From: Eubacteriales bacterium
Lineage (GTDB): Bacteria; Bacillota; Clostridia; Oscillospirales; CAG-272
Reading direction: 5' to 3'
Assembly: GCA_045123255.1 (NCBI GenBank)
Contig: JBGVIN010000010.1
Span: 3,044-67,043, forward strand
Length of the DNA stretch: 64,000 nucleotides
A program made the translations under genes and the position numbers. Below the pieces are notes generated by a model. It was given only the letters and a program-made list of their open reading frames with translations, did no database searches and was not told the DNA's origin. Of this stretch, positions 8,583-63,150 are shown piece by piece; positions within the stretch are counted from its first letter, which is position 1; each line of letters opens with the position of its first letter.

Positions 8583-9353
8583 ATGAACGAACAAAACAAA
8601 AATAACATACCCGAGCGCGAGTCTAACGCCGCGAGGCGAATTCGATTGCTCGGCATAGAAAACGACGATAAAATTCATGATACCTCGCGAGAAATAACCA
8701 AGGGCAATTTTTTCGCCAACCTTTGGTATAAGCACAAGTGGCCGCTTATTATAGGAGCATTTTTCTTGGTTGTAATTATCGCGCTTAGCACAACTATAAT
8801 TTATCAAAGGCTTACAGCGGCAGATATGTCTATTGCCTACAACGGGCCAAAGGAAATTACAAAGGCGGAGCTTGACAAGGCAAATTCAATCTTTTTAGAG
8901 CTTGTCCCGGATTACACGAAAAACGGCAAGGTTGAGATTGATTGGACAAAAAACAGATACTTAACTGACGAGCAGTTTAGATTGGAAAACGGTGGCAAGG
9001 ATATGACACAGCCACAAAAGCAAGCAATGGGTCAGGCATATGACCAAATCAGCAATATGATAGCATATAGCGACTATGACTTTTTGCTCCTCGATACCGC
9101 GATTTATGACGAATTTGCATCAAGCTTTTTCGCACTTACCGACCTATTTCCCGATAAGGATTATAGTGAAATTTCGTACAAGGGGTGCGGCGTTTACCTT
9201 TGGAAAACGGAATTTGCAAAGCAAAATCCCGAGCTGCTTTCAATTTTCCCCAAGGACACCGTCATTTGCATACCAAAGCTGATGAGCAAAAGCCACGATA
9301 AGGAAGCCGCGCTCTTAAAAGCGATTTTAGAGTACGAAAAGGCGTCGGAATAA
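8583..9353 (+). CDS. hypothetical membrane-anchored protein (single N-proximal TM)
   Basis: 256-aa ORF with a GGAG RBS. TM segment WPLIIGAFFLVVIIALSTTIIY. Followed by a terminator at 9372-9396. Confidence 0.6.
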   Translation: MNEQNKNNIPERESNAARRIRLLGIENDDKIHDTSREITKGNFFANLWYKHKWPLIIGAFFLVVIIALSTTIIYQRLTAADMSIAYNGPKEITKAELDKANSIFLELVPDYTKNGKVEIDWTKNRYLTDEQFRLENGGKDMTQPQKQAMGQAYDQISNMIAYSDYDFLLLDTAIYDEFASSFFALTDLFPDKDYSEISYKGCGVYLWKTEFAKQNPELLSIFPKDTVICIPKLMSKSHDKEAALLKAILEYEKASE

Positions 9354-9371
9354 TTCATATTTAACATAAAA

Positions 9372-9396
9372 AGCAGACACAGGGTCTGCTTTTTGT
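9372..9396 (+). terminator. rho-independent terminator
   Basis: AGCAGAC-ACAGG-GTCTGCT followed by TTTTTG. Confidence 0.75.
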
Positions 9397-9404
9397 GTTG
9401 TCAC

Positions 9405-9620
9405 AGATGCATTCGGGGAGAAAATGCACGCAAGCGCGAGGTTATACAATCCTGCGGATTGGTGATATACACACATTCGTGTGATGATATGCAACTCCGT
9501 TGGAATTGATGATATACACCTGCGGTGATGATATGCAACGCCAAGGCGTTGATTGAACCGTAGGTGCAATTCACGAATCTCCCGCGAAAATAGACTCCTC
9601 GACAGGCTCGGAATGACAGG
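9405..9620 (-). repeat. composite hairpin-array element, copy E1 (CATTCCGAGC module + GTAG hairpin + CATATCAT/palindrome array)
   Basis: The reverse complement reads CATTCCGAGCCTGTCGAGGAG...GGGAGATTCGTGAATTGCACCTACGGTTCAAT. This is followed by caacgccttggcgttg CATATCAT caccgcaggtg TATATCAT caattccaacggagttg CATATCAT cacacgaatgtgtg TATATCAC caatccgcaggattg. Collinear with 14108-14262 and 36536-36736. Confidence 0.8.
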
Positions 9621-9638
9621 AAAAACAATGGGCGCATT

Positions 9639-9710
9639 GTAGGGGAGGCAATCTGCCTCCCGCACAAACGGTACGCACCGACAAAACAGGAGGATAATAT
9701 CCTCCCCTAC
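9639..9710. repeat. inverted doublet of GTAG-headed hairpins (REP/REPIN-like)
   Basis: GTAGGGGAGGCAATCTGCCTCCCGC (9639-9663, plus) faces GTAGGGGAGGATATTATCCTCC (9689-9710, minus). The same doublet with the same 28-nt spacer recurs, inverted, at 14310-14382. Confidence 0.8.
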
Positions 9711-9730
9711 AGTTCTGAATGAGGTGTTAA

Positions 9731-9820
9731 GCAGAACACGGCTTAAAACCGCAAAAGAAAACGCCCTGCTTTAGGCAGAGCGTTTCCATATATATTGAAC
9801 TAAGTCTATAAGCTGATGAC
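9731..9820 (-). repeat. degenerate second copy of the rnpB 3' end plus its terminator
   Basis: 9731-9820 aligns with 9935-10027. Shared blocks: GCAGAACACGGC..AAAAGAAAA..GCTTTAGGC..TTTCCATAT..TGAACTAA.TCTATAAGC. About three quarters of positions are identical by eye. Confidence 0.7.
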
Positions 9821-9959
9821 AAGGTGAAAACAATTGAGTATTGTTTTCACCGCAGGAATTCAAACAAAGCAAGAAGTATAAGAAGTCTTTCGCTTGGAAA
9901 GACGACTTAGACGACTATGCGGCTTTGCGTGCTTGCAGAACACGGCAAAGGCATTACAA

Positions 9960-9987
9960 AAGAAAAAACCAAGCTTTAGGCTCGGTT
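9960..9987 (-). terminator. rho-independent terminator of rnpB
   Basis: Minus strand AACCGAGCC-TAAA-GCTTGGTT followed by TTTTTCT, about 13 nt after the predicted rnpB 3' end. Confidence 0.7.
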
Positions 9988-9999
9988 TTTCCATATTAA

Positions 10000-10361
10000 G
10001 TGAACTAAATCTATAAGCCGTGTTCTGTATTCGACGGTCATCTATCTTTGCCTTACGTCACCGTAAGGCTCCGCAAAATTGCGTGCCACCCATGGGAACG
10101 GCTTACGCCTTATCGAGCAAATAAAATTCCCATATGCGGTGTTGCTTCGGATAGGGTTTACACCTACTCTACGTTACCGTAGAATATCGTGAGCTCTTAC
10201 CTCGCGTTTTCATCCTTACCCTTTCGGGCGGTAGTTTTCTGTTGCACTTTCCCGGGAGTCGCCTCCGACTGACGTTATCAGTTACCCTGCTCTGTGAAGC
10301 ACGGACTTTCCTCACGCTAATACCTTTCGGCTCCATAGCGCGCAACCGTCCAACTTAGTTC
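10000..10361 (-). ncRNA. rnpB: RNase P RNA, bacterial class A
   Basis: Minus strand contains the universal blocks GAGGAAAGUCCGUGC (P4 5' strand), CAGGGUAACUGAUAACGUCAG, AGUGCAACAGAAA, GGGUAAGGAUGAAA..GGUAAGAGCUCACG and AGAUAGAUGACCGUCGAAUACAGAACACGGCUUAUAG. P1 pairs GAACUAAGU with AUUUAGUUC. A consensus promoter places the 5' end near 10361. Confidence 0.93.
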
Positions 10362-10367
10362 CCTTGT

Positions 10368-10396
10368 ATTATAATTGATTTTTACCGTTTTGTCAA
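10368..10396 (-). promoter_or_regulatory. consensus sigma-A promoter of rnpB
   Basis: Minus strand TTGACA (10391-10396) - exactly 17 nt - TATAAT (10368-10373). The predicted TSS coincides with the start of helix P1. Confidence 0.75.
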
Positions 10397-10485
10397 GTGT
10401 GAGAAAAAATTGGCACAAATATTTTTCTTATCATAAGATAAAAATAAAGATAAAATCACGAAATTCATACACAGGTGGGGGTAAA

Positions 10486-10668
10486 ATGGAAAACAACGTC
10501 GAATTGCCTATCAAACTCCAAATGGCACTTGCTCACAACGAAAAAGCCTTTTCTACGTTTTTAAGAATGGACGAGGCACATCAAAACGAGGTCGTAAAAA
10601 ACGCAAGCAAGCTCGAAAGCGTGCGCGAAATTAACAATTTTGTCAATTCAATATCACGTATGCATTGA
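10486..10668 (+). CDS. small hypothetical protein (60 aa)
   Basis: Internal ATG of track ORF 10375-10668, preceded by GGTGGGGG RBS-like sequence. Sequence MENNVELPIKLQMALAHNEKAFSTFLRMDEAHQNEVVKNASKLESVREINNFVNSISRMH. No family recognised. Confidence 0.45.
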   Translation: MENNVELPIKLQMALAHNEKAFSTFLRMDEAHQNEVVKNASKLESVREINNFVNSISRMH

Positions 10669-10745
10669 AAACACTCACGTTAGATAAAAAATTGCTCCTA
10701 AGCACGGCAAATTCTCACCGTCATCTTAGGAGCATTCGTTTTAGC

Positions 10746-11438
10746 TTATTTTGTAAGAAGCTCGCGCTCCTTTTCAGCTTCGCTTTTTGTTTCGTCGCTT
10801 TGCTTTGGAATTGGCAAATTCCATTTGAACTTAAAGGCAAGCATTCTTATTGCAATTACTATCGTCATCGTTATTACGGTTGCCCAAACCTCGCCGATAA
10901 ATTTATAGGTTAAAACGAAGAAGCAGGACGCTATTATAACGGGGATTAGATAAATGTGCTTTCTGAATACCGCAGGAATGGTGGCTGAGCAAATATCGCG
11001 CAAAATACCGCCGCCAACGCCTGTAATGCAGCCACAGAACACGAGAATAACAAAGCCTGTTTTGCCGCTTTCAATGGCTATTTCAAGTCCGCTAACAACG
11101 AACGAGGCAAGACCCAACGCGTCGGTAAATTCGATAATAAAGCTATGCTGATGCCTGTCTGCGTAGCGTGCAACGCGCTTTATAAATCCAAGGTGGTAGC
11201 ATATAATGCACACAACCGAGGAAATAACCGCTATTGCGATAAGCGTTTTATCGGCCAAAATACTCGGTGGCACATTGCCTATCGCCAAATCTCTTATAAA
11301 TCCACCGCCAAAGCAGGTGAGTAGCGAAAATATGAGTGCGCCAATAACGTCAGCACGCTTGTGTATAGCGTAGATGGTTGCGGAAACGGTAAACGAAACC
11401 GCGCCGACCGCTTGAATAATAATCAAAAAGATTTCCAA
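10746..11438 (-). CDS. UPF0126 / TRIC-like (YadS/YicG family) membrane channel protein
   Basis: 230 aa, 7 TM. Duplicated UPF0126 signature GGGFIRDLAIG and GVGGGILRDI. Confidence 0.8.
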   Translation of the reverse strand: MEIFLIIIQAVGAVSFTVSATIYAIHKRADVIGALIFSLLTCFGGGFIRDLAIGNVPPSILADKTLIAIAVISSVVCIICYHLGFIKRVARYADRHQHSFIIEFTDALGLASFVVSGLEIAIESGKTGFVILVFCGCITGVGGGILRDICSATIPAVFRKHIYLIPVIIASCFFVLTYKFIGEVWATVITMTIVIAIRMLAFKFKWNLPIPKQSDETKSEAEKERELLTK

Positions 11439-11453
11439 ATCAAATTACCACTC

Positions 11454-12698
11454 TTAAAATTTATGAATTAAAATTCCGCTGCGGAGCTTTGGCTCGAACC
11501 AGGTTGACTTCGGTGGCATAACGTCGCCGCTATCGGCAACCGCCATTAAATCATCAAGGGAGGTTGGATACATTGAAATTGCCATAACCATATCCTCGTC
11601 GCACCTTTTTACAAGGTAGTCAAGACCGCGAATACCGCCTGCAAAGTCAATGCGCTTGCTTGTACGCGGATCATCTATATCAAGAATAGCGGACAAAAGA
11701 TTTTTTTGCAAAATCGCACAGTCAAGGCGTTCGCTTGGTCTTTCGCTTGCGCAAAGCTCGGGGTAAAATTCGAGCTTATACCACTCCTTACCAACGTAGA
11801 TGCCAACCTCGTGCTTCTTCTTCGGGCGGTATGGCTCGCTTCCCTCGCACTTTGTGAGCTTGCCAACCTTTTCCTCTACGATTTTGAGGAAATCATCGAC
11901 CCCGTGTCCGTTCAAGTCCTTCAAAAGGCGGTTGTAGTCAAGAATTTTGAGCGTTTTTGACGGGAAGATAACGGAGAGGAAGTAGTTAAATTCCTCGTCG
12001 CCTGTATAGCATTTATTCTCCTCTCTGCGTTTAAGACCAACCTTGACGGCAGAAGCGCAGCGGTGATGTCCGTCTGCTATATATAATGCGTCAAGTAACG
12101 TAAATGACTCCTCAATTTTTGCATCAATCTCGCGCGAGGAGGTTTGCCAAACGGTATGGCGCACGCCATCCTCACCGACAAAATCGTAGATAGGCGCTTG
12201 CTTCGTTTCGCGCTCGATAATTTCATCTAAGGTGTCGCTGTCCTTATAGCAAAGGAAGATAGGACCTGTGTGAGCTGAGCAGGTGTCAACGTGGTTGATA
12301 CGGTCGATTTCCTTGTCGGCACGTGTAAACTCGTGCTTCTTTATTCTATTTTCTAAATAGTCATCAACAGAGGCACAGCCAACGATACCCGTTTGGCTCT
12401 GTTCTCCCATAATTTGACGGTAGAAATAGAATTTTCTTTCATTATCGTTTATATAAACGCCGTCCCTTTCGTAGCCGTCAAGGGTGTCCTTCGCGGTTTT
12501 ATAAACTATCTCACTGTAAATATCAACACCTTTTTCAAGGTTTATTTCTGCTCTGTCAACGCGCAAAAACGAATACGGGTTGCCCTTTACCATTTCTCTT
12601 GCCTCGCTTGACGACATAACGTCATACGGAAGCGCCGCGCATTTATCAACAAGCGCCTCAGTTGGACGGAGCGCACAGAAGGGTTTTACTTTTATCAT
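11454..12698 (-). CDS. DUF1015 family protein
   Basis: 414 aa. N-terminus MIKVKPFCALRP...LPYDVMSSSEAREMVKGNPYSFLRV and the internal IADGHHR motif are typical of DUF1015. Only 15 nt upstream of the TRIC-like gene, so probably one operon. Confidence 0.8.
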   Translation of the reverse strand: MIKVKPFCALRPTEALVDKCAALPYDVMSSSEAREMVKGNPYSFLRVDRAEINLEKGVDIYSEIVYKTAKDTLDGYERDGVYINDNERKFYFYRQIMGEQSQTGIVGCASVDDYLENRIKKHEFTRADKEIDRINHVDTCSAHTGPIFLCYKDSDTLDEIIERETKQAPIYDFVGEDGVRHTVWQTSSREIDAKIEESFTLLDALYIADGHHRCASAVKVGLKRREENKCYTGDEEFNYFLSVIFPSKTLKILDYNRLLKDLNGHGVDDFLKIVEEKVGKLTKCEGSEPYRPKKKHEVGIYVGKEWYKLEFYPELCASERPSERLDCAILQKNLLSAILDIDDPRTSKRIDFAGGIRGLDYLVKRCDEDMVMAISMYPTSLDDLMAVADSGDVMPPKSTWFEPKLRSGILIHKF

Positions 12699-12747
12699 TT
12701 TATTTCTCCTAATCTATAAAGCAATTGATAATATTTCTATCTATATA

Positions 12748-12776
12748 AGTATATCACGATATTTTTTACTTGTCAA
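12748..12776 (-). promoter_or_regulatory. sigma-A-type promoter of the DUF1015/TRIC operon
   Basis: Minus strand TTGACA (12771-12776) - 17 nt - TATACT (12748-12753). Confidence 0.55.
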
Positions 12777-12835
12777 CAATTCGCGCAAGGACGGATGAAA
12801 AATTTGCTCTTTATTTAAGAATTTTGTATTTTCTA

Positions 12836-12863
12836 TTGAATTATTGAATAAATATGATATAAT
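12836..12863 (+). promoter_or_regulatory. sigma-A-type promoter (extended -10) of the 12910 gene
   Basis: TTGAAT (12836-12841) - 16 nt - TGaTATAAT (-10 = 12858-12863). Implies that the track start at 12844 is not used. Confidence 0.55.
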
Positions 12864-12909
12864 GAATTCGTTAGAAAATCTAACAAATTTAGTTAAAAAG
12901 GAGTTTACT

Positions 12910-13392
12910 ATGGGATTTTTAAGAAAAATTTACCCGGGCGCTTTCAAGGTTGAAAAGAAGGTTACAAAGCCTTTTGTTATTAAGCTTGTTGTTTTTGCAA
13001 TCATCTATTTTGTTGCCTCGGTAATTATTGGAGCTCTTATGGCAACATTCGGACTTATAGGCGCAGCTTCCTCTAAAGCAGTAGTTGGCATTATTTGCTA
13101 CCTCGTTATACTTCTCCTCGGTCTTGTTGACTTAGTGCTATGTGCTTACACAGCTGGCGGAGTTGTAATTTCAATCCTCAAGTTCGTTGGCGTTATCAAG
13201 GACCAAACCTCAGAGGTTGAGAACACAAATCTCAACAATGCTGCAGGCAAGGTTGGCGGCGTATTCGAAAAGGTTGTTGGCGCTACCGAAAACGTAGTTA
13301 ACAAGGTTGTTGACAAGGCAACTGAAAAGAAGGAAGACAAGGCTGAAAATGCTGAGGAAACCGAAAACGCTGAAGAAAACGCAGCTGAATAA
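12910..13392 (+). CDS. hypothetical membrane protein with acidic C-terminal tail
   Basis: The start at 12910 (MGFLRKIYPG...) has AAGGAG 7 nt upstream. Three TM segments. C-terminal KKEDKAENAEETENAEENAAE. Confidence 0.6.
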   Translation: MGFLRKIYPGAFKVEKKVTKPFVIKLVVFAIIYFVASVIIGALMATFGLIGAASSKAVVGIICYLVILLLGLVDLVLCAYTAGGVVISILKFVGVIKDQTSEVENTNLNNAAGKVGGVFEKVVGATENVVNKVVDKATEKKEDKAENAEETENAEENAAE

Positions 13393-13403
13393 TTGACTAC
13401 ATA

Positions 13404-13435
13404 TAGCGTGATACTCCGTTAAGAGTATCACGCTA
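13404..13435 (+). other. 13-bp perfect hairpin directly after the stop codon (no T-run)
   Basis: TAGCGTGATACTC-CGTTAA-GAGTATCACGCTA. Confidence 0.5.
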
Positions 13436-13437
13436 AA

Positions 13438-13590
13438 CTATGATTGCCCTTGCGGGCAAGTTATGAGTTATGATATGCTTCGCATAGTTATGATTGGGCA
13501 ACGCCCAAGTTACAGATTAGATAGGCAATCATATCATAACATTTGCGCAGCAAATTCATAACGGCGAGCATAGCGAGCCTCATAACTCTA
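13438..13590. repeat. hairpin array built on the word GTTATGA (left half) and its complement TCATAAC (right half)
   Basis: GTTATGA at 13460, 13467 and 13487. TCATAAC at 13534, 13556 and 13580. Interleaved with palindromes ttgcccttgcgggcaa, tatgcttcgcata, ttgggcaacgcccaa and atttgcgcagcaaat. Confidence 0.75.
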
Positions 13591-13609
13591 AACTAAAACC
13601 GACAGAAAA

Positions 13610-13660
13610 AGAGCAGACACATAAGGTCTTATACCTTGAGTGTTTGCTCTTGTTTTTCTT
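13610..13660 (+). terminator. rho-independent terminator about 220 nt downstream of the 12910-13392 gene
   Basis: Long hairpin AGAGCAGACAC...GTGTTTGCTCT followed by TGTTTTTCTTT. Places the GTTATGA array inside a probable 3' UTR. Confidence 0.55.
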
Positions 13661-13664
13661 TATG

Positions 13665-13745
13665 TCGATATGTGGGCTTTGCCCACTCGATATGTTATCG
13701 CTTTGCTCGAACTCGATATATTGTCGCTACGCGCTAATTCGATAT
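13665..13745 (+). repeat. hairpin array built on the word TCGATAT
   Basis: TCGATAT at 13665, 13687, 13713 and 13739 (periods 22, 26, 26), separated by GC-rich quasi-palindromes. The first, gtgggctttgcccac, is perfect. Confidence 0.65.
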
Positions 13746-13808
13746 GAGATAAATCCCGCATTGGCGGTGGATAAGGTGTAGTCGTCCGTTGTAAAATAAC
13801 ATTATCTT

Positions 13809-14016
13809 GTAGGGGCGACCATTGGTCGTCCGCATTGTTGGGTGCGTTCCAATTGAAACGGGGCGTTGAGGACGTCGCTATTCGAGACAGAGACGCCGTC
13901 CCCTAAGAATAATCAACGCGCAGCGTTGTATATCATCAATGCAACGCGTTGTATATCATCACGGCGTGCCGTGTATATCACCACGCATTTGCGTGCATAT
14001 CATCAACCGTAGGTTG
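13809..14016 (+). repeat. GTAG hairpin plus CATATCAT/palindrome array (partial composite copy)
   Basis: GTAGGGGCGACCATTGGTCGTCCGC (13809-13833). Then caacgcgcagcgttg TATATCAT caatgcaacgcgttg TATATCAT cacggcgtgccgtg TATATCAC cacgcatttgcgtg CATATCAT caaccgtaggttg (13914-14016). Confidence 0.8.
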
Positions 14017-14107
14017 CATTGGTCTTTTCCAGCGTTGCTGGGTGCGTGCCTGTTCCCCTCATCCACCATAAATGGTTCCCCTCCCATCATAGGGGATGGC
14101 TCATTTC

Positions 14108-14262
14108 CCGTCATTCCGAGCGTAGCCGAGGAATCCCCGCAGACGGGCGATTCGTGAATCGCCCCTACGGTATAATCAACGCCTCGGCGTTGTATATCAT
14201 CACGGTTTACCGTGTATATCATCAACCCGCAGGATTGTATATCACCACGCTTTCGTGCATTT
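14108..14262 (+). repeat. composite hairpin-array element, copy E2
   Basis: CATTCCGAGCGTAGCCGAGGAATCCCCGCAGACGGGCGATTCGTGAATCGCCCCTACGGTATAAT. Then caacgcctcggcgttg TATATCAT cacggtttaccgtg TATATCAT caacccgcaggattg TATATCAC cacgctttcgtg. Confidence 0.8.
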
Positions 14263-14265
14263 TTT

Positions 14266-14440
14266 GCGGACAACCAATGGTTGCCCCTACGGTGAATTTT
14301 GTTTTGTTTGTAGGGGAGGATATTATCCTCCCATTTCGTTCGGTGCGTACCGTTTGTGCGGGAGGCAGATTGCCTCCCCTACAATGCACCCATCGTTTTC
14401 TCTGTCATTCCGAGCGTAGCCGAGGAATCCCCGCGGATTG
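14266..14440. repeat. GTAG hairpins: single unit (14266-14290, minus), inverted doublet (14310-14382) and a CATTCCGAGC module (14405-14435)
   Basis: GCGGACAACCAATGGTTGCCCCTAC. GTAGGGGAGGATATTATCCTCCC ... GGAGGCAGATTGCCTCCCCTAC. TCATTCCGAGCGTAGCCGAGGAATCCCC. Confidence 0.8.
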
Positions 14441-14460
14441 TTCACACTTTCCATTTTTAG

Positions 14461-14517
14461 AAAAAAGAAGGCTACCGCCTCCTCTGCCCGAGGGCAGAGA
14501 GCGGTAGCTTCTTTTTA
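14461..14517. terminator. strong bidirectional rho-independent terminator ending the giant-gene transcription unit
   Basis: AAAAAA-GAAGGCTACCGCCTCCTCTGCCC-GAG-GGCAGAGAGCGGTAGCTTC-TTTTT. On the minus strand it begins right after the stop codon of the 66-aa ORF (14515-14517). Confidence 0.85.
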
Positions 14518-14715
14518 TTTGTTGAAATATGGGTTTAGTGATGTTGGCATCGTTGGGAAAGTAACGTTTCCGCTACCAGGGTTTGACGGTGTTACAGAAG
14601 GAAATCCTCCACCTCCCGTACCTCCAGCGGTTTCGTTTTCTCCAAGAGAAACATCCATAATATCCTCTACTTCAACGTTATCTATTTCTATAATAGGTGA
14701 AACATACTTGTTCAT
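14515..14715 (-). CDS. small hypothetical protein (66 aa), acidic N-half and Gly/Pro/Thr-rich C-half, co-oriented 44 nt downstream of the giant gene
   Basis: MNKYVSPIIEIDNVEVEDIMDVSLGENETAGGTGGGGFPSVTPSNPGSGNVTFPTMPTSLNPYFNK. AAGGAG lies 10 nt upstream of the ATG. The stop abuts the terminator. No signal peptide or TM. Confidence 0.5.
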   Translation of the reverse strand: MNKYVSPIIEIDNVEVEDIMDVSLGENETAGGTGGGGFPSVTPSNPGSGNVTFPTMPTSLNPYFNK

Positions 14716-14759
14716 CGGGTATTAACTCCTTTCGTCTCAGGTATTATTTGAAATAGTTT

Positions 14760-17700
14760 TTACTTAGAGAAATAGTTGTATGCTGATTGACCGTACTTCA
14801 TAATCTTTTCAGCAAGAGCAATTTCAGCCGGTTTCTCGTAATAATAAGCAAGGAAACACCAATAAGCAATATTGGAGTGTACAGTTGAAATTACTTCACC
14901 GTTGTACATAAGCTCGCAAGTAACAACCGTGTTCATGTCAGCTGCTGACAATGTGTTAGCCTTAACCTTTGCAATTCCGGTTTCTGCATTATAACTAATA
15001 TCTTCGCTAGCTACGTCGTATGAAATTTTGTATCCAGCAAAGTCAGTATAGGTTATTTTTGCAGTGAGGTTATCCTTGTTAAAGCCCTCTATTTTATCAA
15101 AGTAGCTGAACCAGAATACCAATTCTACCTTATCAGCAAGTACAAGAGAGATGTCATATGCATGCTCATTTCCTTCTTGAGCAAACCATGCTTTACTTAG
15201 GTCAACGCCTTCTGTTGCATATGATTGATATTCGTCAGTATTTCTGTTTGCAGGCTCGTTTGCGTCGTGCTTAAGGTAAACTTGTGCTGCTGCACCATAG
15301 TTAAGCATATCGATCAAAGTTGTCTTAAGCTTTGCATCGTCTGAGTTTTCAAGCCAGTACAATGCATAGTTGCGAATGCTCATCTCGTTTACGTTGCTTA
15401 TTGCTTCGCCTGTGCCGATTCCGTCTTCATCAATTGTGCCTTCAAAGATTTGAACTTGAATATCACAGTTCATTTCCTTAGCTGCAATTGCTTCAACAAC
15501 AATCTTCATTACGCTTCCTTCTTTAATCCATGCGCTTTGTGGAATGTAGATTTCCACAGAATCAGTGCCGCATGCTTCAGTGTGAACCTTAATTGCCTTA
15601 GCGTAGTAAGACTTGTTTGCATCAAGCTTAGACATATCAACGTAGAAGTTCATATCGAGTGAAGCACCTGCTGTTACGGAGATACCCTTCCAGATAGATT
15701 CTTCAGCCGTTTTCTTAACAAGCTCAACAAGTCCGTCACCTGCATCTATTGCTGAATACTCTGCGCTAAGCTTATCTGCTACGTTTGCAGGAATCTTAAC
15801 TGTGTTATTTGTTACGTCAGATGATGTGATTACGTTACCGTAAATTGCGCCTACAACTGTTACGCTTACGCCTGTAGTTGTCTCTTCGCCTGATACTGCA
15901 CCGCCAAGTGTGATTGCATAGCAGTAATCACCGTTTGCGATAACCGCACTGTCCTTATCAACGTTAACAATTGTGCCGTTTGCACGAACTGCGATTACTG
16001 AGAAGCTGTTGCCCTCAACGTCGTTATCGCCTGTTGTACCTGTAAGAACAGACTTTGTGAAGGTGAATGATGAGCCCTCAGAGCCCGGTTTTACGTAAAG
16101 TGCGCTGTAGCCGCTGATTTCAGAATCGTTAGCGTTAAGCTCTGTCTTTACGAATGTGATAATACCGTAGCCTGTAGTGCCTGCATCGATTGATACGTTG
16201 TTCATATTAACAACAGTACCGTTTTCGCTACCGCCAATGGTGAGTGGTTGTGGGTTGCCGTATGCTGTAGTATACTTGTTAGCAATAAGTTTTACACCGT
16301 CAAGTGTAAGCTCTACTGCTTCTCTTGTATCAACACAACGGTTAGCCGCAACTATTGTACCGTTTTCGATTGTAGCGTCTGCGTAAACCTCAAATGCCTT
16401 CTTAGATGTTGAAGTTACTGTATGACCGCCAAGGTCAAGAGTTACGTTCTTTTCAATCTTGATAAGCTCGTCAATTGTTACGTCACCAAGGAGAAGGATT
16501 GTATCGCCGTCCTTAGCGTATGCAAATGCACCTGCAAGTGTCTCGAATGAATATCCTGTGCCGTTAGCATACTTGATGAAAGCAACTGCCTTATCAGCCT
16601 CAACACCGTCGATTATAATCTTACCGCCGTTTGATGAGTTAGATGCGTTATTTGAGTCGTCCTCGATTGTAAAGTTAACGTTTGTTGCTGTGATAACCGC
16701 GTCTGTAGCGCCATTGTCGAGTGCCAATGCTGCGTATTTTTCAGAACCGCTCTTATCATTACATACAAGCTTACCGCCGTTAACTGTTACGTTTGCATTA
16801 GCTGCTGAAACGTTAACTACGTTAAGACCTGTAAGAGTTGAGTTTTCGATTGTAACAATTGCACCCTTTGCTGAGCTTGCAACGTTAACTGTATAGTTAG
16901 CTGCTGTTGCATCTACGTTGTAGATTACTACGTTTGTAGCACCTTGAATAACGTTGATTGCGCGCTCGCCTGAAGCTTCGATTGTTACGTTCTTAATTGT
17001 TACACCGTTTGCACCGCTTACATTAATTGCTCTGCCTGCTGTTGATGTAATTGTTTTGCCGTTACCGTTCAAGGTAATTGCTTTGTTAATTGTAATAATG
17101 CTAGATGTGTTAACGTCTGCAAGAAGCTCTACCGTGTCACCTACACCTGCTGCTGCGATTGCTGCTTCGAGTGTTGCGTAATAGTTGTTGCCAACCTTAG
17201 CTACTGCCTTGAGTGCAGGGATTTCTACAGGAGCTTTGATGATTGTGCCACATACTGAGCACTTAATTCCAGCTTCATAGCCTACGTTTTCATACGTTGG
17301 AGCTACTGGAGGAATTTCAACCTCAGTGTGAGCTACCTTATCAGTTACTGTAGGAACAACAGTGATTGTCATACATACTTTGCAGTACTTACCTTCTGTA
17401 AGACCTGTAGCTGTGCAAGTTGCGTTAACTGCAGGAATTGTTTTTAAGGTGTGAGGAACCATATCAACGTAGTTGTCTACATATGTGTCGCCACATACTG
17501 AGCATGTGTAAGTTGTATAACCCTTTGCTGTGCAAGTTGGATCTGTTACTTCCGCGTTGTAGCTGTGATCAATTACAGGAACTGTTACGGTTTCGCGTGA
17601 GAGTTCCTCGCCGCAAACTGTACACTTAGTTACGTTGTCGTATGAACCTGTAGCTGTGCATGTAGGAGCATTTTCGTTTTCCTTAACTGCTGTGCCGGCT

Positions 17701-36339: not shown

Positions 36340-36535
36340 TCCTTCGGCAAGCTCAGGATGACGGAAGCCGAGCACCCATAACGTCATTCCAAGCGTGCCA
36401 CCCCCCACATTGGCAACATCTCATCCGCAACCGTAGGGGCGACCATTGGTCGGCTGTTTATTCTCCGTTCATTCGCACACCATTATTCACGGACAGTCGG
36501 GGACGCCTGTCCCTACGGGGGTCACACCATTTTCG
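36340..36535. repeat. cluster of REP-like units upstream of the giant gene
   Basis: CATTCCAAGCGTGCC module near 36385. GTAGGGGCGACCATTGGTCGGCTG (36433-36453, plus). GTCGGGGACGCCTGTCCCTAC (36496-36517, minus orientation). Confidence 0.7.
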
Positions 36536-36736
36536 CCTATCATTCCGAGCGTAGCCGAGAAATCTACGTTTACGGGCGATTCGTGAATCGCCCCTACGGT
36601 ACAATCAACGCCTTGGCGTTGCATATCATCAACCGTAGGTTGCATATCATCAATTCCAACGGAATTGCATATCATCACCACAGGTGTATATCATCAATCC
36701 ACAGGATTGCATATAATCACCGCAGGTGCATATCAG
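36536..36736 (+). repeat. composite hairpin-array element, copy E3
   Basis: CATTCCGAGCGTAGCCGAGAAATC...ACGGGCGATTCGTGAATCGCCCCTACGGTACAAT, followed by six hairpins. They are caacgccttggcgttg (36606-36621), caaccgtaggttg (36630-36642), caattccaacggaattg (36651-36667), caccacaggtg (36676-36686), caatccacaggattg (36695-36709) and caccgcaggtg (36718-36728). Each is separated by CATATCAT, TATATCAT or CATATAAT. Confidence 0.85.
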
Positions 36737-62754: not shown

Positions 62755-63009
62755 ATTCCTCTCTTTCCTTTAACCGCGACCGCTTAAATTTATTTGCCGC
62801 GGCTTTAACCCTTCGCACCTTCATTATTGCATAAAAAAACCGGTACCAAACGGTACAGTTTCACGAATTTTGATAGACTTTCTTTCCAGTAGTCATACGC
62901 ATTCTCCCTCCGTCGCGCCAAATTCTCATTTTACAAAGCCAACGCCTCATCGGCGCGCCACCTCCCTCCCAGAAGGAGGCTTGATGGGTACCAAACGGTA
63001 CAATTTCAT

Positions 63010-63150
63010 ACAATCTTTGATTGATGCCATTCAAGCCAAGGCTTGATTCCATTCCGCGCAAGCACGGATTCCATACACGCTTCGCGTGATTGCATACAAC
63101 CTGCGGTTGATTTTATGCCTTCCCTAGCAGGGAAGGTGGCACGAAGTGAC
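63010..63150 (+). repeat. hairpin array built on the word ATT(C/G)CAT plus a CCTTCCC-n5-GGGAAGG / GACGGATGAG module
   Basis: tcaagccaaggcttga TTCCATT ccgcgcaagcacgg ATTCCAT a cacgcttcgcgtg ATTGCAT a caacctgcggttg ATTTTAT gccttccctagcagggaaggtggcacgaagtgacggatgag. Confidence 0.7.

Follow-up and report, generated by a model that had tools for sequence, protein, structure and literature searches.

Tagged-hairpin arrays in gut Clostridia: a dispersed repeat family related to the Gut-1 motif

E3 is an array of short hairpins joined by a constant tag, one of several such arrays in the 64-kb stretch of DNA analysed here (the window). The arrays are real and lie far beyond what chance would produce, and their hairpins are kept as a single-strand structure, in a strand-specific manner. 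They belong to a family, the TATATCAT family, that is a widespread and previously undescribed sister of the orphan motif Gut-1. We tentatively favour, with somewhat less than even confidence, the reading that E3 is a copy of a REP/BIME-like DNA repeat that is dispersed and non-coding, acts as single-stranded DNA and is not a conventional RNA gene.

The unit of the arrays is the 8-nt tag YATATCAY plus a short palindrome that starts with CA, ends with TG and has GNA or GNNA as its loop. Hairpin units are 11-17 nt long and follow each other head-to-tail with a period of 19-25 bp. The window contains the following arrays of this kind:

36603..36735, plus strand: E3 array, an AATCA head followed by six perfect CA…TG palindromes with YATATCAY between them
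14174..14257, plus strand: E2 array, an AATCA head and four units, three perfect and one with a C.A mismatch
13911..14016, plus strand: E2p array, an AATCA head and five units, without the CATTCCGAGC module
9427..9554, minus strand: E1 array, an AATCA head and six units, collinear with E3
62990..63140, minus strand: a degenerate fifth array of the same or a sister family, with TATGNAAT tags, CA…TG hairpins and GNA loops

A sequence-only reading of this DNA had described constant tags alternating with variable palindromes at four places, and all four arrays were located. The window has 16 matches to the pattern YATATCAYCA where 0.32 would be expected; none of 100 shuffles reached this number, and 15 of the 16 matches fall within the E1, E2, E2p and E3 arrays. 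What that reading took for a partial copy at 13914-14016 is a complete five-unit array, E2p, that lacks only the CATTCCGAGC module. Its description of perfect CA…TG palindromes holds for most units: parsing of the E1, E2, E2p and E3 arrays gives 21 inter-tag segments, of which 17 are perfect palindromes and four have one mismatch each (G.T in three, C.A in one), and every segment of the window arrays except one starts with CA and ends with TG. Tandem Repeats Finder reports periods of 19, 21 and 42 for E3, including a two-unit block present in ~2.7 copies (period 42, 84% matches). The units of E1 and E3 agree at slots 1, 3 and 5 and are completely different at slots 2, 4 and 6. Thus, the proposed equivalence of slots between copies can be demonstrated at those three positions of E1 and E3 only, and the differing slots look like replaced units rather than the product of point-by-point compensatory change.

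Other repeats lie at the heads of the arrays and beside them:

36541..36564, plus strand: E3 head module CATTCCGAGCGTAGCCGAGAAATC, with one mismatch to the copies at 14112 and 14406
36574..36597, plus strand: E3 GTAG-type (REP-like) hairpin GGGCGATTCGTGAATCGCCCCTAC, which reads GTAGGGG… on the minus strand
14112..14168, plus strand: E2 head, with the CATTCCGAGC module at 14112-14135 and a GTAG-type hairpin at 14145-14168
13860-13905, plus strand: E2p head, a different GTAG-like hairpin
9560..9615, minus strand: E1 head, with the CATTCCGAGC module at 9593-9615 and a decayed GTAG-type hairpin at 9560-9583
13436..13510, plus strand: sister array with the tag (GTT)ATGA and TT…AA hairpins, of a kind also found at L069 and L104
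13660..13750, plus strand: sister array with the tag TCGATATG, a tag family also found at L018, L065, L069, L093 and L096

E1, E2 and E3 have a common, collinear head that runs from the CATTCCGAGC module through the GTAG hairpin and AATCA to the first hairpin. Allowing a gap of four to six nucleotides, the CATTCCGAGC…CGAGGAATC module has four copies in the window, at 9593, 14112, 14406 and 37193. The copy in E3 is GAGAAATC. The gap had been described as six nucleotides, a pattern that finds no copy; its true length is 4-5 nt. GTAGGGG occurs 10 times in the window against 2.1 expected, and nine of the 10 occurrences lie within three repeat clusters. A GTAG hairpin often heads arrays in other genomes as well as in the window (L069, L067 and L001), and arrays nest with GTAG hairpins and at least five other tag families.

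All of the window arrays lie in long intergenic stretches that are dense with other repeats. They have mixed orientations relative to genes and do not adjoin promoters. E2 and E3 flank an ORF of 7020 codons at 14760-35822 on the minus strand. E1 lies ~440 nt downstream of rnpB, the gene for RNase P RNA, on the same strand, and is the only array near a stable-RNA gene; there is no tRNA gene within the window. Pfam searches of window ORFs found no transposase, HUH enzyme, integrase or recombinase. The presence of SpoIIE and a class-A RNase P RNA fits a sporulating Clostridia host.

How widespread are arrays of this kind? We scanned one genome per species for pairs of tags with a CA…TG segment between them and identified at least 119 TATATCAT array loci in more than 100 genome bins, with several copies per genome. 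The hosts of the listed loci are nearly all gut or rumen bins labelled Clostridia, Oscillospiraceae, Acutalibacteraceae or Eubacteriales. Among the matches listed, stems reach at least 4 bp in 366 of 401 inter-tag segments, the segment starts with CA in 360 of the 401 and ends with TG in 364, a C-G pair closes 319 of 366 loops, and the commonest loops are GAA, GCA, GCAA, GTA and GTCA. One architecture is shared by 66 loci among these matches. This canonical composite is a ~190-bp pair of convergent arrays, A and B. The A array is composed of AATCA-A1-tag-A2-tag-A3-tag and leads into a half hairpin, X5ʹ. The B array follows in the opposite orientation, and its end consists of a full hairpin, C-X-G, then AT and a terminator T-run. 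From one species to the next the slots retain their identity, with CAATTCC-GNA-GGAATTG at A2 and CAAAAC-GAA-GTTTTG, or one of its paired variants, at A3. By a generic search for consecutive perfect hairpins we found further tag families in these genomes and the window, namely TCGATAT(G), TATGNAAT, ATGATG and ATTCA; the TATGNAAT tag of the array near 63000 is also found at loci L009, L025 and L061.

We built a covariance model, R1, from 39 A modules taken only from other genomes, with no window sequence, and searched it with filters off. R1 matched E2p with 69.9 bits (13904-13981), E3 with 65.3 bits (36596-36675), E2 with 61.7 bits (14167-14245) and E1 with 58.7 bits (9462-9537). The E-values range from 2e-9 to 1e-11, the last being that of E2p, the best match in the window, and all four matches are on the correct strand and in register with the AATCA head. 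Hence, the window arrays are A-type members of the family. R1 also gave 34.4 bits on the rest of E3 (36676-36735) and 26.4 bits (E 0.005) on the degenerate array (63024-63098). The AATCA head, the CA…TG feet, the YATATCAY tags and the GNA/GNNA loops on the tag strand are common to window arrays and family. Neither the model search nor reading of the window revealed a B partner or a convergent composite with a covarying X helix. The window arrays represent a unidirectional, expanded form, nested among GTAG-type REP hairpins; unidirectional expanded arrays also occur at L061, L067, L069, L071, L100, L117 and L121. Metagenome scans with window-specific junction patterns found no further copies of the window composite. 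We ruled out that the element belongs to phages or plasmids: blastn searches of plasmid and phage sequences found no match, and a scan of viral contigs gave 19 loci, of which about eight are real arrays and the rest are chance matches in coding sequence.

That stems are kept while their sequence changes had been proposed from the window copies, and the family supports this. We aligned the 39 A modules from other genomes with MAFFT, in an alignment not fitted to structure, and compared pairing with that in column shuffles. Pairing was observed in 94.2% of cells versus 75.8% in shuffles, with 0 of 500 shuffles as high, and double-sided changes were found in 124 cells versus 34 in shuffles, again a value that no shuffle attained. 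Both sides change in 13 of the 19 pairs, and one-sided stem changes are almost absent. When partner columns were slid by 1-3 positions, pairing fell to 28-45%. X5ʹ is complementary to the 5ʹ arm and loop of the terminal X hairpin in 74 of 86 B modules. The resulting long-range helix closes the B module, with partners 60-90 nt apart, and has at least eight variants that covary, loop bases included. Most distinct hairpins are perfect (187 of 249, 75%), and arms change by symmetric one-base indels, as in CAATTCC/GGAATTG versus CAATCC/GGATTG.

Which strand folds? On the tag strand, GN(N)A loops outnumber TN(N)C loops by 59:2 (A modules) and 39:2 (B modules), and the prevailing loops are triloops and GNNA loops that do not fit GNRA. 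Internal mismatches are G.T rather than A.C by 31:7 overall, by 14:1 in B arrays and by 6:5 in A arrays, and G.T accounts for 31 of 1581 stem cells (~2%). These asymmetries of loops and mismatches indicate a constraint on one strand and therefore rule out a purely duplex role. Nearest-neighbour folding of E3 as DNA gives the same energy for either strand, with a z-score of -3.9 for both, so that folding does not discriminate between strands. Classic extra-stable loops of DNA mini-hairpins include C-GNA-G triloops, GNNA and TTTA, whereas stable RNA hairpins favour GNRA and UUCG. By these general stabilities, the loop types of the arrays would point to single-stranded DNA.

The family has a sharply defined genomic address. 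Among the matches listed, 43 of 86 B-array starts lie 32-46 nt past the 3ʹ end of a tRNA gene (twelve amino-acid classes) or a tmRNA gene, with an A-run/hairpin/T-run terminator between gene and array; window arrays do not have this placement. Most other B-array starts also have “…CCA AAAAA-hairpin-TTTTTTT” upstream, and the terminator hairpins before B arrays belong to a few shared types. B arrays start at the terminator T-run and invariably point the same way as the tRNA or tmRNA gene before them. A arrays face the opposite way, abut an outward promoter, and are antisense to all local transcription. Read backwards, the array head is TTGATT, a -35 hexamer, and a perfect TTGATT-16/17-TATAAT promoter is found at 15 of 58 A-array starts compared with 7 of 2000 random sites. 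From the positions of terminator and promoter, we infer that the canonical element takes up the interval from a stable-RNA gene's terminator to the promoter that follows.

Nearly identical composites lie behind different tRNA genes. Arrays are also found elsewhere, in either orientation relative to genes, and at least two are in probable 5ʹ leaders: at L017, between a T-box terminator and leuS, and at L069, just upstream of prfA. Among the at least 119 loci, no gene for a transposase, HUH enzyme or integrase is enriched beside arrays. The sole enriched neighbour, at 13-16 loci among the matches listed, encodes a 23S_rRNA_IVP four-helix-bundle protein. We do not take this protein to be a partner of the arrays, since unrelated genes follow its gene, no array lies on the far side, and there is no homologue in the window. 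A GAGTTCGAA… flank near some A ends, considered as a tRNA fragment, appears to be ordinary synteny of tmRNA and tRNA-Ser loci. At L087, a 21-nt direct repeat of the tRNA-Gln 3ʹ end brackets the terminator and composite, which is an insertion signature. Such att-like duplication of a tRNA 3ʹ end was seen around only this one of 46 composites, and hence is not a general signature.

Arrays change by duplication of units or blocks and by replacement of units, even between near-identical strains. We compared the window with a metagenome contig that encodes the identical ABC ATPase beside E3 and aligns in three blocks with 95.6-97.2% identity. Units 1-4 of E3 are the same in that strain, whereas units 5-6 (CAATCCACAGGATTG and CACCGCAGGTG) are replaced by the perfect palindrome CAAGGCGCACGCCTTG, an inserted module and TACGCTTGCGTG. 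Thus, the array is polymorphic between strains despite flanks that are ~97% identical. The REP stretch upstream of E3 has also been rebuilt in that strain. Block duplications are evident in E3 (period 42) and at L069, L117, L067 and L100. Within one genome, copies can have similar A arrays and different B arrays (L078 and L081), indicating that array modules recombine. Short-read contigs end right before the E1 and E2 repeat clusters. The earlier suggestion of selection for structure therefore captures only part of what happens: covariation in the family supports it, but the differences between window copies and between strains are mostly wholesale replacement of units or duplication of blocks.

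The view that E3 is a REP-like element acting as single-stranded DNA is supported by its family membership, by covariation, loop bias, the scarcity of wobbles and symmetric indels in the arms, by turnover and dispersal, by the lack of an obvious transcription unit, and by the nesting with GTAG hairpins and other tag families. The hairpins would matter while the tag-bearing strand is single-stranded, for instance in a transcription bubble or as the template of the lagging strand. In analogy to REPs and the HUH/Y1-type enzymes that act on them, the tag and hairpin foot may be the recognition unit of a putative trans-acting protein. Perfect complementarity might be kept partly by the requirement for single-stranded folding and partly by palindrome-templated correction during replication, and the constant tags could supply microhomology for exchange between arrays. 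Several observations argue against this view. No transposase, HUH enzyme or integrase was found in the window or is enriched beside arrays, the 14:1 preference of B modules for G.T over A.C is what an RNA transcribed in the tRNA direction would show, and the folding energies do not separate the strands, whatever the special stability of d(GNA), d(GNNA) and d(TTTA) loops. In addition, at least two arrays are in probable 5ʹ leaders, and Gut-1 was rated as a certain RNA (PMC2864571). Slot identity across species, together with the fixed orientation of B arrays after tRNA genes, looks like purifying selection for a host function and not like pure selfishness.

Could the arrays instead function as structured RNA? 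They would then be transcribed as read-through 3ʹ trailers of stable-RNA genes, as leaders, or as small RNAs like Gut-1, and their hairpins and AU-rich tags could act, for example, as nuclease entry or blocking sites, as a protein sponge, or as a fail-safe terminator domain. Strong covariation is consistent with this explanation, as are the at least eight covarying variants of the long-range helix closing 74 of 86 B modules, the shared direction of B arrays and their upstream tRNA or tmRNA genes combined with a 14:1 tolerance of wobbles, the arrays in probable leaders, and the filing of the sister motif Gut-1 as an sRNA. Nonetheless, we consider it rather unlikely. B arrays begin past a terminator that is strong and bidirectional, and neither array is preceded by a promoter; A arrays, although antisense to local transcription, have a GNA bias of 59:2, with wobbles at 6:5; the dominant loops are triloops and non-GNRA GNNA; and wobbles make up only ~2% of stem cells. 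Wholesale swaps of units between near-identical strains and the mixed orientation of arrays relative to window genes also argue against an RNA. An alternative explanation that dispenses with any recognition factor or function is that the arrays are a neutral by-product of slippage expansion and intrastrand template switching (quasi-palindrome correction), with palindromes persisting in transcriptionally silent spacers since they are harmless there. The high proportion of perfect hairpins (75% of distinct ones), symmetric indels in the arms, block duplications, fast turnover at the strain level, and the accumulation of arrays in long, repeat-filled intergenic regions would all fit. We regard this as distinctly unlikely, because more than 100 species-level genomes have retained the tag, the foot (CA…TG) and the edges of the loop (G…A), the slots keep their identity, the covarying helix formed by X is conserved, placement 32-46 nt past tRNA and tmRNA genes is precise, and several independent tag families have one architecture. 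Least probable, to our mind very improbable, is a duplex regulatory or insulating region in which the tags bind a DNA-binding protein, or the arrays absorb supercoiling that arises between a strongly transcribed stable-RNA gene and the promoter after it, as has been proposed for BIME-gyrase sites. The position between terminator and promoter, with the end of the A array supplying the -35 hexamer TTGATT, is consistent with this idea, and stable-RNA genes are among the most strongly transcribed genes. However, the period varies from 19 to 25 bp, so that tag sites are not phased; asymmetries of loops and mismatches are meaningless in duplex DNA; cruciform extrusion would need stems longer than 4-7 bp; and window arrays do not adjoin promoters.

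What is the broader significance of these arrays? The set of tag-plus-hairpin elements now has hosts, Oscillospiraceae, Acutalibacteraceae and their relatives, and a sharp address, 32-46 nt after tRNA and tmRNA genes, from terminator to promoter. New features described here are the convergent two-array architecture, the covarying closing helix and the evidence for turnover at the strain level. Together, these points make the nature of the elements, RNA or single-stranded DNA, and the acting factor testable. In practical terms, the arrays break short-read assemblies of gut Clostridia and could serve as strain markers. A bolder proposal, possible though we would sooner doubt it, is that the TATATCAT family, Gut-1 and at least four further tag families (TCGATAT, TATGNAAT, ATGATG and ATTCA) form one superfamily, a dedicated 3ʹ-flank module of stable-RNA genes (tRNA, tmRNA and RNase P RNA) in gut Clostridia, each tag family having its own single-strand-specific protein. 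If so, the superfamily would represent either a new class of hairpin-guided mobile DNA that targets the terminators of stable-RNA genes, or a host system that insulates or processes the output of these very active genes.

The arrays are not described in the literature that we searched, and comparison with known systems is instructive. The sequence-only reading called the layout an inverse CRISPR array. This is fair for the layout, since constant and variable short segments alternate regularly and palindromic elements are involved, but nothing suggests a CRISPR-like mechanism. In the arrays, the constant part is an 8-nt linker and the variable part is a palindrome, with a period of 19-25 bp, whereas CRISPR repeats are 24-48 nt long and come with unique spacers and cas genes. 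The variable parts of the arrays are self-complementary and not foreign-derived, there is no leader-cas context, and Pfam searches of the main ORFs of the window found no Cas domains. Integron attC sites resemble the arrays in being serial sites defined by a folded single strand rather than by sequence. attC sites are imperfect palindromes of 57-141 nt whose cores are RYYYAAC/GTTRRRY; gene cassettes lie between the sites, and an integrase is encoded nearby. By sequence and Pfam annotation, cores, cassettes and integrase are all absent from the window arrays.

REP, BIME and REPIN elements are closer, and closer than the BOX repeats to which the arrays had been likened, an analogy that proved weak. 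REPs and BIMEs consist of tagged palindromes with stem sequence types, tandem head-tail clusters and inverted doublets (PMC3733652, PMC2817692, PMC3116915). They and REPINs act as folded single-stranded DNA. Like the arrays, these elements are short palindromes outside genes, carry a conserved tag at the foot and have stem types that differ by paired changes; they too form arrays with defined linkers and inverted doublets, and lie after genes and terminators. The likeness extends to high-copy clustering of palindromes, the window having five arrays plus sister arrays. REP-like GTAG-tagged hairpins head the window arrays as separate elements beside the array units. In contrast to REPs, the units carry the 8-nt YATATCAY, and not GTAG or CGTC, at the foot, and they are smaller (11-17 nt), far more variable per array and mostly head-to-tail. 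No RAYT (Y1 transposase) was found among the window ORFs searched against Pfam, and the REP surveys consulted do not mention Firmicutes. HMP2_2419 (PMC8040213), an unnamed palindromic candidate that lies close to aminoacyl-tRNA-synthetase genes, may be a relative.

The closest relative is Gut-1, which is known from human-gut sequence and was rated a certain RNA by its discoverers (Weinberg et al. 2010, PMC2864571). No published function was found for it beyond “human gut only” (PMC2864571). The window element as such is absent from Rfam, as had been thought: scans of the whole window at gathering scores found RNase P RNA only and no Gut-1 (gathering score 50 bits), and permissive scans, which covered 9000-14800 of the window (E ≤ 5) and 1600-2500 of L104 (E ≤ 1), found nothing meaningful on arrays there. 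Its grammar, which had not been recognised, is nonetheless that of Rfam RF01706, Gut-1, which has the same plan, with a consensus of three variable hairpins and a constant GUGAAAU between them, and the same genomic position in related genomes. RF01706 was found at L104 (63.7 bits, with a reverse copy at 34 bits) and at L001. At L104, Gut-1 begins directly after the terminator of a tRNA-Ala gene as a convergent pair, and a TATATCAT composite follows; at L018, an ATGAAAT array continues directly into a TCGATAT array. Gut-1 arrays are directly concatenated with TATATCAT and TCGATAT arrays (L001, L104 and L018). The tag differs, being GUGAAAU in Gut-1 and YAUAUCAY in the arrays, the hairpin feet of Gut-1 are not CA…UG, and the Gut-1 model gives no score on window arrays or TATATCAT arrays; the window has 17 occurrences of GTGAAAT where 12 would be expected, and these do not form arrays. 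Gut-1 loops are UUC or UGC in the Rfam orientation, which implies a GNA reading on the other strand. Like TATATCAT arrays, Gut-1 has three or more variable hairpins with a constant 7-8-nt tag between them, and occurs in gut Clostridia bins at the same position with the same convergent-pair layout. Gut-1 has been in Rfam since 2010 without an organism, context or function, and can now be placed in a larger set of tag-plus-hairpin elements.

The tagged-hairpin arrays of the window, whose palindromes are strung on the constant tag YATATCAY, have sister arrays with other tags. These are listed here together with further modules and duplications of the window.

13436-13510 (+), hairpin array with the tag (GTT)ATGA
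13660-13750 (+), hairpin array with the tag TCGATATG
9593, 14112, 14406 and 37193, recurrent copies of the module CATTCCGAGC-n4-5-CGAGGARTC
36386 and 36541, degenerate copies of that module
about 36330, the related module GATCCTTCGGCAAGCTCAGGATGAC
9752-9817 and 9957-10020 (-), the RNase P RNA gene's 3' end and terminator, in two copies

Both sister tag families are also present in L018, L065, L069, L096 and L104, loci from other genomes, where their arrays are often joined end to end. In the other strain (L140), the module GATCCTTCGGCAAGCTCAGGATGAC is inserted within the E3 array.

The RNase P RNA 3' end and terminator are found again about 200 nt downstream, in what looks like an att-type duplication from insertion of about 140 nt. 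At the L087 composite (2290-2590, -), the terminator and the composite lie between direct repeats of 21 nt that match the tRNA-Gln 3' end (CGAATCCCTCATCCCCAGCCA), and the second repeat copy is followed by a further terminator. The bidirectional terminators between different tRNA genes and the B arrays are of about six common hairpin types, such as TTCGACAAGTTTCGACTTGTCGAA and TCCAAGTCTTCGGACTTGGA, found repeatedly over loci and genomes (L013, L016, L042, L045, L097 and others), as if the terminator were a repeated module in its own right.

What lies at the other end of the arrays? Directly behind the composite A end in 13–16 of 119 loci among the matches listed is a gene for a 23S_rRNA_IVP four-helix bundle of 111–118 aa (PF05635, E 2e-18; L094 3624-3968, also L078, L023, L027, L079, L076, L085, L047, L060 and others). 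Its promoter is TTGATT-17-TATAAT, and the array head supplies the -35 hexamer. No homologue was found in the window. Some arrays probably lie within mRNA leaders: that at L017 4325-4400 (-) separates a T-box terminator from the ribosome-binding site of leuS, and that at L069 3740-4030 (+) is immediately 5' of the prfA start codon.

The E2 and E3 arrays stand on the two sides of a single 7020-codon ORF (14760-35822, -), which has numerous internal repeats spaced about 700–2000 nt apart and probably encodes a giant surface protein. Short-read contigs from Logan SRR25030061 (L141, L142) appear to come from the same strain as the window or a near-identical one. One stops 41 nt past the ORF adjoining the E2p/E2 cluster. 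Towards E1, a contig stops within the neighbouring ORF; the repeat clusters probably break assemblies.

GTAGGGG-tagged REP-like hairpins number 10 in the window, with 2.1 expected, and nine of the 10 are held by three repeat clusters (9639-9710, 13809-14382 and 36433-36597). Firmicutes go unmentioned in the REP survey consulted. The window hairpin GTAGGGGCGACCATTGGTCG… is close in sequence to the GTAGGGGCGAGCATTGCTCG… of L069.
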